From Escherichia phage Phagiculus, in sequence record OR896821.1: 46,458 nt of DNA; one strand, written 5' to 3'. The translations under genes were made by a program, and so were the position numbers. The notes below the pieces were generated by a model. It was not told the DNA's origin. It ran no database searches and saw nothing but the letters and a program-made list of their open reading frames with translations. This document shows positions 37,662 through 43,600 of this stretch, piece after piece. Each line of letters starts with the position of its first letter. The stretch's first letter is position 1.

Positions 37662-37877
37662 TTAACTAACCTTTGGAGGATTTGGTGCTAGCATGTAATG
37701 AGTCACGTCATCAATCTCTTCACAACCAAGAGTAGTGAAGCACCTGTACTTTTTAAAAGTTTTAGGATCAACTAAGTAATTCCAATAAGCAGGCATCACG
37801 CCATAACTTCTTGAATTAACAATAATAAATACTTGGTCATCACTTGGCTTTTCGTCTTTAACATCAACCCATTTCAT
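37662..37877 (-). CDS. hypothetical protein (71 aa)
   Basis: ORF. Confidence 0.45.
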   Translation of the reverse strand: MKWVDVKDEKPSDDQVFIIVNSRSYGVMPAYWNYLVDPKTFKKYRCFTTLGCEEIDDVTHYMLAPNPPKVS

Positions 37878-39378: not shown

Positions 39379-39600
39379 ATGAAAAAGTTAATCGTTATCG
39401 CGGCAATGATGTTAGGCGGATGCTCTACGATGCCAGAGCGCACTTGTACGGCGATTTATGAGTCTGGTGGTATGAGTTACTCGGTTTATGTTTTTGGCAC
39501 GCAGAAGCGCGGCGAGGAGATTTTACTGAGGGCTGGGTATCCATTCTCGTTTCATTACGTGTCTGAGCGGAATTTTAGAGACCACGATTGTGGCGGTTGA
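39379..39600 (+). CDS. small lipoprotein (Cor/Llp-like superinfection exclusion candidate)
   Basis: signal peptide with lipobox LGGC (MKKLIVIAAMMLGGCS); 73 aa; convergent with the tail tip gene cluster. Confidence 0.5.
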   Translation: MKKLIVIAAMMLGGCSTMPERTCTAIYESGGMSYSVYVFGTQKRGEEILLRAGYPFSFHYVSERNFRDHDCGG

Positions 39601-39604
39601 TAAA

Positions 39605-39628
39605 GAAAAAGCCCCGAAAGGGGCTTAG
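39605..39628. terminator. bidirectional terminator between convergent genes
   Basis: AAGCCCC-GAAA-GGGGCTT with flanking A-run. Confidence 0.6.
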
Positions 39629-40296
39629 TCGTATGCGGCGGTATATATTGCTGTAACTCTAGCACCGTTTGTCGTTCCACCAGAAGCCTGCGTGCCATTT
39701 ATCAATGGAACTGCATTTATCCTAGTCTGTGATCCATTGTATCTACAGGATATGCCAGCAGTAGCCGACCTTATTATCTGCTGACCATTCTGAACCTGAT
39801 AAACGTTAAGAGTGCCAAGAGCGGCTGGGCAAACAGCTACGCTTCCGCTGTAAGTTCTATCTATGTCTATACCTCGCCCATCAACGGTAAACAAATCGCT
39901 AAGAACCTTACTCTCATTAGTGAGGACTAATTTGCCTGCTGAATCCCATATAGCCATACCCCATTGCGGAAGTGATTGCGGAAATATAGCAAAAACATAA
40001 GCCGTCAAGCTAAAAGCCTGCCCTGCATAGTTTGTTCCACTAATGTAAATGGTTCCGGCATTAGCGCCTTCAGTAATGTTGTACGCTATAACTGCAACGC
40101 CTTGAGAAGGGCTGCTTGTCTTAATAAATACACTTACCGGATAAGTGGAATTGAAAGGCAGGTACTGAGTAACGCTATGTGCCGCCGAATTCCCAGATGA
40201 CTGGAATGTGTACTTCCCGTAGAGGCAGAATGGAGTTGAAGCTGGAGTTATGAATGGGTTTCCATTAACATCAATTATTGCACCATAATCAGCCAT
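39625..40296 (-). CDS. tail-associated protein (223 aa)
   Basis: downstream of J; N-terminus MADYGAIIDVNGN paralogous to neighbour. Confidence 0.45.
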   Translation of the reverse strand: MADYGAIIDVNGNPFITPASTPFCLYGKYTFQSSGNSAAHSVTQYLPFNSTYPVSVFIKTSSPSQGVAVIAYNITEGANAGTIYISGTNYAGQAFSLTAYVFAIFPQSLPQWGMAIWDSAGKLVLTNESKVLSDLFTVDGRGIDIDRTYSGSVAVCPAALGTLNVYQVQNGQQIIRSATAGISCRYNGSQTRINAVPLINGTQASGGTTNGARVTAIYTAAYD

Positions 40297-40601
40297 TAGT
40301 TCTTCTCCAGGTAGACTACCATTTTACACTTAGTCGCAGGATAGTAACCATCAGCCGCCGCATTACCTGGGGCTATCGTTATTGTGTTTCCGCTAGCGAC
40401 TATATATCTTCCGTTGTTAGGTCCTGATTCATCCAACGTTATAAAGTACCCAACTTTATACCCAGTTGGTATCTGGTATGAGTAACTACCTGATGTTTGA
40501 CCCGTGGCAAGATCTACAAACGCAACCACCGTCACAGGCTTAATCCCATAGTTATTGTAATTACCATTCGCGTCATATGTAGCAATGCCATACTCAGCCA
40601 T
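40296..40601 (-). CDS. tail-associated protein (101 aa)
   Basis: downstream of J; N-terminus MAEYGIATYDANGN. Confidence 0.45.
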   Translation of the reverse strand: MAEYGIATYDANGNYNNYGIKPVTVVAFVDLATGQTSGSYSYQIPTGYKVGYFITLDESGPNNGRYIVASGNTITIAPGNAAADGYYPATKCKMVVYLEKN

Positions 40602-40648
40602 AATTTACTCCTATTAAAAAAGGCAAATCCATTTGCCAATTATATCAA

Positions 40649-43600
40649 TTAGAAAGTACCAGTCAAACGACCAATCTGTACGCGAAGCCTTCCGTTTGCA
40701 TCAGCAACTGAAATGGTCTGGTTTGTCTGCTTCATCCTGCCTTCTCCAGCCGTAAATCCGTTGTTTTCGAAAGTTCCAGCTTTATCAAGCCTCCATCCAG
40801 TATTGTTTGCGACAAAGTTGTTAGACTGAATCGCGTTGCCAATCTTAGCGTTAGTGATTGAACCGTCCTGAATCACCGCGCTTTGGATGAATACCTGGTT
40901 GTTCTCGACAACGAAAGGCAGCGACCACTGACCGGAACCCTGGCTAATGCCGTTACTGATTGCAAATCTGTTAGCATCAAAGATGAACTGACTTCTAACA
41001 TTACCACCAGATCCAACAAGCTCCATACTCATGCCCGCGCCGTACTCCATTCCCTGATACTTAAGGCCAAGCTTAACACCATACTGAACACCAACACCTT
41101 CAGCCGTCGCGTAAGTATCTAGCTTCTCATTAAGAGCGGCTTCATTTTCCCCAAGCCTTGCGCTTAATGCCGTGTCAGCTGTAGCCCTTGCTTCAGTCTC
41201 TGTTGCCAGCGCTGTTTCGATGGTTGTAATCTGTCCTACAATCTCATCATCTATCTGCGCTTTAAGCTGCGTAAGGGCCTCTACACGAGCCTGTGTTTCA
41301 TCAGCTATCAGATTTACAGCCTGTCGATATTCCGCCTTCCTTGCGCCGTTTTCGCGTGTCATAATCCGAACATCAATATCGTTTGCCAGAGCGTTCTCAA
41401 TGATTGCCTCGGCCTGGTTTTGAATATCAGTGTTTGAATTAATGGCATTCTGAAGAAGGTATTTGTAACCATCAGAATCTTCAATATCAACCTTGATTTC
41501 ACCAATGATTGCAGTTACATCATCAGAAGCCATGCCTCTAACAAACTCAGTCCATTGAGAAACGTTGCCGATTCTGTCAATGGCCCTAGCCCTGTACCAT
41601 CTTACGTTGCCTGCCGGAAGAGTAGTGTGCCAGTACTCATACTGAGGGTATGGAACAAGGCTCAGTAATGAAGCATTCTCGGGAGAATAAGTACCGTCAC
41701 CATTATCAGGAACTTGCTGCAACTCAACATATGCAGTATCCGCACTGTTCTCGCCAAAGCCCCACTTAACTCTGATGCCAAATACCTCATCATCTGAAGC
41801 GGTTATTACAGCTAACGGTTCAGGCTCGCCAATCTTTCCAGTCAGAGAAACGGTTACGATTTCAGACCATGCGGAAACTGATTTCTGGTCAGTAACAGCT
41901 CGCACCCTAACGTCATAGATGCCAGCGTAGATGCCCTCAATATCAACCTCGGTGTTGGCAGTCTCCGGTACGTTAATCCAGTTACCGTTATTCTTACGCC
42001 ACTGCACGTTGTATGTTTTTGCATACTGCACTTTGTCGTAACCAATAACCATCGTTTCAACGCTTAATCCCTGAACAACCTTACTGTAGCTTGATACTCT
42101 TAGGTTCTCTGGTGGCAAGATTCTGTCAGGGTCAACGATACTTGTTGGTCTGTCATCGATGTTCACACCGTAGTCAATCTCATCGTACTTGTTCGGGTCA
42201 TACTGCACGGCGGTAATGTTGTATTGGAATGAATCATCTCCGTCAGTATTTGCTTTTTGAATCCCTGTCACCACATATTGCTGCAAAGCCAGATTCTGCT
42301 TATCAATTGCGAATACTGTGTCAGGCTGCGGATTGAAGCTAAACGCGGTGTTAAGTTCAATCGTTAACTTATCCTGAGATACAGAGGCAATAGTGCGGTA
42401 CTCTGGGCTTCCGTCCGGCTTGTTAATCAGAATCCTGTCGCCAGGTTCAGCATCAATCGCGAATGGAACGAAAACTTGCAAACCAGAAGCCTCAACGATA
42501 CGACCGGAAAGGTTTAGCGTGTAGTTGCTTGACCAAGCCTGGTCATTAACAGCAATAACATCACCAACCATTGGAATCATGCCTTCAAGACCAGTGGTGA
42601 AGCTGATTGTTTCGCTTCTCAGGTTCGTCTTCAGCAACCAGCGACCCCTACGGTTCGCTTCACTCCTTCGCGTACAGCCAATGGCAGAAAGGTCAACTGG
42701 ATTAAATCCAAATCTGCGCGTAGCCTCGAGCTCGAATACTGGCTCAATATCTTGCTGGTAGTTGTTCTGCTCATCATCAAACTGGACGTTAGCGGTAGTG
42801 TACAGGCTCTTGTCGCTTGAGAATGTGCGGCTAAACAATCCATCCACAACGTTATCGTTTGTGAATACGTAGCTCGGCTGACGCGGTTTATCAACAACAA
42901 TACCAATCTTCTCGCCATCATAAAAAGTAAGACCACGGAAGATTGAGCAAATATCACGAATAAGCTGATATGCCTCTACCTTCTGTTGGATAACTACGTC
43001 GCACAAGTAGCGAGGCTCCAAACCACCCTTACCGTCAGGAACCATCTGGTCACAGAATTGTGCGGCTTCATACAGCCCCCACTTATCAATCTCAACACCA
43101 AGCTCGCGCTGGTCAAGGCCGTATCGCTGACTAACCACCAGGTCATAAAGAACCCATGCCGGGTTATTTGACCACGCCATCTTGAAAGTTCCATCCCAAG
43201 TGCCGCTATACTGCCGCGTCTCTGGGTTGTAGTTTGTTGGAACTCTAATCAACTTCCATTTCTTCTTAATGGCGATAGTCGGGATGCCATTTGGGAATAG
43301 GTCAGAGCTAAACTCAACATAAACTAAAGCGGTTAGTGGATACCGGAATTTTGCATCAATTACTTCCTGGTAGGTTGTAATCTGCATACCGTTAACTAGT
43401 GTGCTACTCGTTGAGTCGGGAGTTATCTTACGAATGCGGACAAGAGCACTACTAAACTCGGCTGGTAAATTGACACGGATAGAGCGGTCATAACCCGTTG
43501 TAGTCTTACCGTTAGCCACGCCTCTAGTATATTGGGTGTACGCTCCGCCATTAACAGATAAATCAATTGCATACTCACACGTTGTGCCATTTAAATCTCC

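Follow-up and report, generated by a model that had tools for sequence, protein, structure and literature searches.

Escherichia phage Phagiculus (sequence record OR896821.1), whose 46,458-nucleotide sequence was analysed at its full length and is called the window below, belongs to the Drexlerviridae and has other Drexlerviridae such as JulesPiccard as its closest annotated relatives. We describe here two adjacent open reading frames (ORFs), of 101 and 223 codons, that follow its central tail fibre gene J and that we call the small and the large cassette gene (Table 1). An earlier note, made from the letters alone, had pointed to this pair behind a J-like gene, and both the coordinates and the Pfam matches bear it out. 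The J-like gene falls in PHROG 31, 'central tail fiber J', and the small gene starts 47 nt past its stop. The small gene matches PHROG 557 (7e-26) and the large gene PHROG 425 (9e-58); the best BLASTP matches among T1-type and lambdoid proteins are 52–58% and 53–54% identical to the small and large proteins respectively, and searches of PDB sequences, Pfam and NCBIfam returned nothing for either. Convergent with the large gene lies cor, whose translation carries the lipobox LGGC.

Small gene, large gene and cor are an already described FhuA-type cassette in an already deposited phage, and not a new kind of system. Two genes and cor lie downstream of the tail fibre gene in the FhuA-dependent phages T1, HK022, N15, ES18 and phi80 (PMC13164509 section 2.5, citing Wietzorrek 2006), and the same cassette is present in 10 FhuA-using Drexlerviridae and Dhillonvirus phages of the BASEL collection (PMC13164509 section 2.5). 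It has been linked to FhuA-dependent phages and to an 'RBP locus downstream of gpJ', RBP standing for receptor-binding protein (PMC13164509 section 2.5; PMC8594841; bioRxiv 10.64898/2026.04.02.716166). The earlier note had likewise thought of receptor-binding or tail-accessory proteins, and we agree that the pair belongs to the receptor-recognition locus at the tail tip.

We then considered what kind of proteins the pair encodes. Both had been called rich in Gly, Thr, Ser and Tyr, which is roughly right: the small protein contains 12% Tyr, 12% Gly, 11% Ala, 9% Thr and 9% Asn, and the large one 12% Ala, 10% Gly, 10% Ser and 9% Thr. AlphaFold2 (AF2) gave confident, all-beta models of both. The large model (pLDDT, or predicted local distance difference test, 87; predicted template modelling score, pTM, 0.84) has an RBP fold of two beta-sandwich units, and the small model (pLDDT 85) is a single lectin-like beta-sandwich unit. 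As modelled, the large protein shares its fold with the solved LptD-binding RBP of Oekolampad (Bas18; PDB 9RPT chain C), which belongs to the family of surveyed loci called type B below (E 4e-67) and begins with the same kind of hairpin, GAGILIDYNDGRP. A Foldseek comparison of the small model with viral models recovered only small uncharacterized proteins, at E 1e-3 or worse. A simple hydropathy heuristic, which is not a dedicated predictor, shows no signal peptide, no lipobox and no hydrophobic segment in either of them (maximum KD19 0.81 and 1.02), unlike in Cor; both N-termini are acidic, with no Lys or Arg within the first eight residues. Membrane names for these proteins are therefore unsupported.

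In order to place the window among related cassettes, we surveyed 79 IMG/VR loci around J homologues, together with T1, HK225, JeanPiccard and JulesPiccard, and read the ORFs downstream of J. In type A, which includes the window, T1 and lambdoid HK225-like loci, J ends in LRVQ(I/V)GRLTG and is followed by a small protein of 100–105 aa, a large one of 212–229 aa and cor. Type B, the LptD type, has a J ending in GGRVVVG(V/T)(W/F), a single protein of 311–321 aa starting M(P/A/G)QGI.I(D/N)LNDGR, and a lipoprotein. In type C/F, J ends in LRVE.GRITG.W (LRVRIGQL in F, locus L066) and precedes a small protein of 90–92 aa starting MAEYGYAIYDDRG, a large one of 204–206 aa starting MYGMSIKKSDG, and a lipoprotein. 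Type D (J end LRVRMGLW) has a small protein of 98–102 aa starting MPQGLQCWDGAG, a large one of 213 aa starting MSGFEVYNSAG, and a lipoprotein, and type E (J end VRVKLGYLG) has 123-aa and 265-aa proteins with a small lipoprotein. Five cassette types have small and large pairs that bear the N-terminal motif described below. Where J is 1264–1478 aa long, with a long C-terminal extension, no motif-bearing ORFs follow it in the surveyed loci.

The end of J follows the type of cassette. The window J is 91–92% identical to LptD-type J over residues 1–1050, but only 33–40% identical to it in the last 40; conversely, its identity to lambdoid FhuA-type J is 43% over residues 1–900 and 71–85% in the last 40. 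Across the 79 loci, the C-terminal 12-mer of J predicts the cassette type. From this mosaicism, the last ∼40 J residues belong to the cassette module, which defines a recombination boundary ∼40 codons before the end of J and is in agreement with the k-mer result of bioRxiv 10.64898/2026.04.02.716166. A cassette-specific J tip points, as far as sequences can tell, to physical contact between this tip and the cassette proteins.

Our preferred reading, to which we give a probability of about 0.6, is that the pair forms the structural half of an FhuA-type receptor-recognition cassette of T1-like and lambdoid siphophages, composed of the J C-terminal tip, the small protein, the large protein and Cor. 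The observations behind it are gene order, homology, the fold match, the absence of export signals and J-tip mosaicism. From these we infer that the pair is located in the virion, which of its subunits binds FhuA and what the hairpin at the protein starts might do; that Phagiculus itself depends on FhuA is presumed from the correlation in the literature only. Several points weigh against this reading. The hhalign match of the type A large family to the LptD RBP is weak (E 7e-4, probability 27%), and a search of 1.84 billion proteins with a small-family hidden Markov model (HMM) gave no hit at 205–230 aa, the size of the large family; at database scale, kinship between the small protein and the second unit of the large protein does not reach significance. 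The assignment of FhuA binding in the preprint bioRxiv 10.64898/2026.04.02.716166 rests on AlphaFold3 models, and the cryo-electron microscopy (cryo-EM) map of T1 leaves J residues 821–1172, and anything attached to them, unresolved (PMC11945409). In the literature we found no virion proteomics, genetics, virion location or FhuA-binding experiment for either protein. To our knowledge, the receptor-binding protein of T1 has never been identified experimentally, and this cassette is the candidate put forward for it in the literature. Finally, the PHROG names ('membrane associated protein' and 'outer membrane protein') and the report on phage KanT1 (PMC13164509) treat the pair as membrane or exclusion proteins.

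The last point amounts to a different explanation, in which superinfection exclusion by Cor would involve the two proteins as its membrane-associated partners. Constant linkage with cor would fit this role, which is assumed in PMC13164509; that report obtained no Foldseek or HHpred hits for the pair and guessed at exclusion. We regard it as very unlikely, because Cor has a signal peptide, a lipobox and a hydrophobic segment and the pair has none of these, because the pair in T1-like phages lies on the strand of the tail operon, opposite cor, and because analogous pairs stand beside unrelated lipoproteins in other cassettes. The predicted fold of the large protein, being that of a proven RBP, contradicts both the database membrane names and the report that there are no structural hits.

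The earlier note had also proposed that the two proteins are alternative receptor binders with a common anchor. This part does not hold. Small and large genes co-occur in 21 of the 22 FhuA-type (type A) loci, the exception having a broken small gene, and they are paired in other cassette types as well; moreover, interchangeable full receptor binders would not be expected to differ in size and fold as these do (one unit versus two), nor to carry the supposed anchor internally. The pair is more aptly described as obligate, unequal and probably paralogous modules. In the exceptional locus, L073 (IMGVR_UViG_2595698508_000001), the small gene is split into fragments of 60 and 75 aa, 19–347 nt past the J stop, which we saw in no other type A locus. 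Its J ORF is also truncated (871 aa), and sequencing frameshifts are therefore likelier than natural loss.

What does stand is a conserved N-terminal element followed by a divergent remainder. The small protein begins MAEYGIATYDANGN and the large one MADYG-AIIDVNGN, with 9 of 14 positions identical and one gap; the earlier pattern, MA(D/E)YG..D.NGN, captured this shared start with slightly wrong spacing. For this pair alone the pairwise alignment suggested at the time is marginal (BLASTP E=0.041 across the shared start), and beyond about residue 15 BLASTP finds no significant similarity; it is conservation in the homologues that supports the motif. The 30 small homologues all keep M1, G5 and G13, with T8, D10, A11 and N12 almost invariant; the 38 large homologues all keep G5, with A6, N11, G12, N13 and P14 almost invariant. 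The best profile–profile match does not join the two N-termini, but the small N-terminus to residues 111–123 of the large protein (E 1.4e-4 to 3.4e-4), where its second domain starts, so that the motif is present three times in the two genes. A second copy near residues 100–124 of the large protein is detected by regular expression in types A, C, F and E, and is present in locus L063; in type D a similar internal copy is visible by eye only.

We next asked how far this likeness exceeds what unrelated gene starts would show. Chance, or preferences at gene starts (Met-Ala, high expression), would accommodate the marginal pairwise statistics: apart from the BLASTP value of E 0.04, a 22-column HMM of the small-family motif ranked the 223-aa ORF first of 728 six-frame fragments of the window, at only E=0.11. 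Furthermore, 'D.NG' is a generic tight-turn pattern. This explanation is nevertheless scarcely credible. A shuffle test on N-terminal residues 3–30 of the window pair gave p=0.014, and of the 538 candidate starts in the window a loose regular expression for the motif matched just 3, two being those of this pair. In four other cassette types, too, the small and large proteins resemble each other at their N-termini (shuffle p 0.03, 0.0008, 0.004 and 0.0002), although the types share ancestry and these tests are not independent events. Because the motif is conserved in both families, repeated internally and recurrent in other cassette types, we judge the shared start to be real, and by sequence comparison the N-terminal likeness is maintained across very divergent cassettes. 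That small and large N-termini co-vary by cassette type is not supported, their score matrix not being diagonal-dominant.

The motif stands where a beta-sandwich unit begins, in every unit, and so is found beyond the two N-termini. Because one copy is internal, at the start of the second domain, it may be structural, and it has the look of a domain-start hairpin. In both AF2 models the N-terminal copies (the first ∼20 residues) are predicted with the lowest confidence, which would be compatible with folding on a partner but falls short of showing it; a docking anchor, as in the earlier proposal, is only one possible role of the motif. A hairpin at the C-terminus of J, ISVADANGRLRVQIG, resembles the motif by eye, but was missed by all three motif HMMs (small N-terminus, large N-terminus and large internal copy), and this likeness is unproven. 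In any case, the repeated hairpin offers a concrete target for mutagenesis.

Homology between the type A and type C pairs is clear: with hhalign, their large families align over the full length at 99.7% probability (E 2e-25) and the small families at 93% (E 4e-7). Between small and large families the signal is weaker. Residues 1–74 of the type A small protein align in register with residues 109–200 of the type A large protein over 72 columns (E 2e-4, probability 45%), and six further cross-type pairings of small proteins with second halves of large ones keep this register (E 5e-4 to 1.4e-2). Once the motif is taken out, the profiles of the small protein and of the large protein's first unit show no significant match (E 0.005, probability 7%). 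The database search with the small-family HMM returned 82 hits, mostly proteins of ∼100 aa or shorter fragments; 21 exceed 400 aa, and because the six of these that we checked carry PPC, Big_5, FG-GAP, PKD-like or head-fibre domains, we take the long hits to be non-specific. On these comparisons it is plausible, though unproven, that the small protein and one unit of the large protein are paralogues.

The type C large family matches the LptD RBP at E 3e-4 (probability 38%), in a different register. When small and large profiles were concatenated and compared with the LptD RBP profile, type A aligned through its large part only, whereas types C and D were collinear over the full length at weak E-values (0.006–0.02). 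Given the homology of the A and C pairs and the structural kinship of the LptD type, families specific for different receptors do not look unrelated. A bolder reading, which we offer tentatively and think more probably wrong than right, is that hairpin plus beta-sandwich is a universal building block of the tail tip. The N-terminal hairpins would then link J tip to small protein and small to large protein, much as the internal hairpin links units; the 101-aa and 223-aa pair would be a split form of the three-unit, 311–321-aa LptD-type RBP; and all cassettes specific for outer membrane proteins (FhuA, BtuB, LptD and others) would form one superfamily. If so, the rule for swapping receptors would be to exchange the cassette together with the last 40 J codons.

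Two side observations concern the spread of these families. Homologues of the type C large protein occur in many Stx1- and Stx2-converting phages (44–51% identity), in Nonagvirus JenP1 (41%) and, over part of the protein, in the 92-kb Cronobacter phage vB_CsaP_009 (∼30%), and the type C RBP family therefore extends beyond the T1-like and lambdoid siphophages. The type E cassette (L011; IME253, Rao1, TR3 and phiA2-1) includes a 61-aa cor-like lipoprotein and has a J ending in NGVVRVKLGYLG; one member, phiA2-1, was isolated on a host with an fhuA deletion.

The expression signals suggest that the two genes are translated together. The small stop and large start overlap as TAATG, and in the small gene it is the invariant Glu99 codon that provides the GGAG Shine–Dalgarno sequence for the large one; as a result, part of the C-terminal conservation of the small family may be an RNA constraint. 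In most type A loci inspected, GGAG lies 8–10 nt before the large-gene ATG (GAGAGGG replaces it in two), and the stop/start junctions overlap or abut (TAATG, TAAATG or TAGATG). Upstream of the ribosome-binding site of the small gene, a stem-loop with a T-rich run is present at the equivalent position in all T1-like relatives checked (L001, L003, L005, L017, L018 and L063); the stem keeps its position, with differing sequences and compensatory changes, in JulesPiccard, T1, L005, L017, L018 and L063. It is absent in the lambdoid relatives, where the small gene abuts J. This element may be an attenuator that sets the ratio of J to cassette expression. A GC-rich hairpin between the convergent large gene and cor could act in both directions. 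Directly upstream of the stem-loop and overlapping the end of J, we noted a near-consensus sigma-70-like site (TTGACT, 16 nt, TG-TATAAT; 11/12), whose −35 lies inside the conserved RLTG codons; JulesPiccard and L005 have a weaker −10, and T1 has none.

Translational coupling and adjacency to the large gene, together with its small size, would also suit the small gene as one for an assembly chaperone of the large RBP that is not itself in the virion, leaving only the large protein on the J tip. In LptD-type loci one RBP does without any small protein, and the purified Oekolampad RBP bound LptDE in cryo-EM samples, no partner being mentioned in the portion of that preprint available to us (bioRxiv 10.1101/2025.07.07.663478). 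We think this unlikely. The small gene is upstream of the gene for its presumed client, whereas genes for known fibre chaperones (lambda Tfa, T4 gp38/gp57) are found downstream. The small protein has the hairpin motif of the client and a lectin-like beta-sandwich, which suggests that it is a structural paralogue; and the LptD RBPs, at 311–321 aa against 223, are roughly the size of small and large proteins together. A reversal of roles, with the 101-aa protein as the FhuA-contacting tip and the 223-aa protein as adaptor or decoration, seems improbable to us; both proteins are similarly conserved among FhuA-type phages, and the data do not decide which subunit touches FhuA.

Under our preferred reading, that of a structural half of an FhuA cassette, late transcription would run through J, and the conserved stem-loop may reduce its passage into the small and large genes, which lie behind it as the last of the late tail operon. 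The small and large genes would then be translated as a coupled pair by way of the GGAG and the TAATG overlap. Both products would be soluble, all-beta cytoplasmic proteins, presumably built onto the distal end of the trimeric J fibre. At the cell surface the 223-aa protein would bind FhuA and trigger irreversible adsorption, and the 101-aa protein, a one-unit relative, probably of the second unit of the large protein, would link the J tip to the RBP, either as an adaptor or as a second subunit. The MA.YG...D.NG hairpin would start each unit, and the two N-terminal copies may dock on the preceding component. Cor made in the infected cell would block FhuA from the periplasmic side and so protect that cell. 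To the published cassette our analysis adds a structural connection with a solved RBP, evidence that speaks against annotating the pair as membrane proteins, homology between types and the J-tip boundary, which should be of use in annotation and in engineering receptor swaps.

Table 1. Coordinates of the cassette, its signals and other features mentioned in the text.
Feature	Coordinates	Strand	Basis or remark
J-like central tail fibre / tail tip gene, 1131 aa	40649..44044	-	Pfam FNIII-A_GpJ 1e-39, Phage_Tail_Tip 1e-37, Phage-tail_3 4e-20
Last ∼40 J codons, TFENNGFTAGEGRMKQTNQTISVADANGRLRVQIGRLTGTF	40652..40771	-	Follow cassette type, not the rest of J
Sigma-70-like site	40639-40666	-	
Stem-loop and T-run, terminator- or attenuator-like, between J stop and small gene	40622..40637	-	Terminator scan
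Shine–Dalgarno AGGAG, 6 nt ahead of small-gene ATG	40608..40612	-	Read from sequence
Small cassette protein, 101 aa: N-terminal hairpin motif and one beta-sandwich	40296..40601	-	
Small-protein N-terminal motif, MAEYGIATYDANGN	40560..40601	-	Conservation in small family
GGAG in Glu99 codon to large-gene start	40296-40310	-	
Large cassette protein (223 aa), a candidate RBP for FhuA with two beta-sandwich units	39625..40296	-	
Large-protein N-terminal motif, MADYGAIIDVNGN	40258..40296	-	Conservation in large family
Internal third motif copy, residues 111–123, second-domain start of large protein, QWGMAIWDSAGKL	39928..39966	-	Profile–profile match
GC-rich hairpin between large gene and cor, AAGCCCCTTTCGGGGCTT	39609..39626	.	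Terminator scan, minus strand only; T-run on minus strand
cor, FhuA-blocking superinfection-exclusion lipoprotein	39379..39600	+	NCBIfam NF047972 lamb_exclu_cor, equivalog, E 1e-12
Rha-family regulatory protein, 216 aa	37952-38602	-	
DUF551 protein	37662-37877	-	
HNH_3 endonuclease ORF, 157 aa	35967-36440	-	Pfam 5e-23

Elsewhere in the genome, the HNH_3 endonuclease ORF lies between the genes for an Erf-like recombinase and a PD-(D/E)XK exonuclease. Because JulesPiccard has these recombinase and exonuclease genes adjacent without HNH_3, it looks like a mobile homing-endonuclease insertion. The genes for the Rha-family and DUF551 proteins lie between the recombination genes and cor, an interval in which JulesPiccard has different small ORFs.

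Among known systems, JulesPiccard has the same cassette as the window, with the same order and the same cor neighbour. T1 (AZS32466 and AZS32465) and HK225 (HK225_022/023, annotated as similar to HK022p24/p25) share the order J, ∼100 aa, ∼224–229 aa, cor, and the T1/HK022/N15/phi80-type cassette shares with the window PHROG 557/425, the N-terminal motifs and the LRVQ(I/V)GRLTG end of J. The differences are lineage details only: in T1-like phages cor is convergent and the stem-loop separates J from the small gene, whereas the lambdoid phages have all of these genes in one direction, with the small gene directly against J. The type C pair of the Tempevirinae (haarsle, atuna, swan01 and JK16), with small proteins of 91–92 aa, large ones of 204–206 aa and a lipoprotein, is homologous to the window pair in both members and has the motif in the same positions, the internal copy included; it differs in being opposite in orientation to J, in its lipoprotein and in the end of J (LRVE.GRITG.W). 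These phages are reported to be BtuB-dependent (PMC13164509). The LptD-binding RBP (Oekolampad, Rtp44-type) is ∼100 aa longer than the large protein.

The functional logic of the cassette is that of T5 pb5 and Llp, in which a dedicated FhuA RBP reportedly sits on the tip of the straight fibre and a periplasm-facing lipoprotein blocks FhuA (PMC9586334); the window proteins have no sequence or fold similarity to pb5 that would make them of its type. Lambda J, which recognizes LamB, and TLS-type J, which recognizes TolC, have the same position in the virion and the same task, but unlike in the window, their receptor domain is part of J itself.
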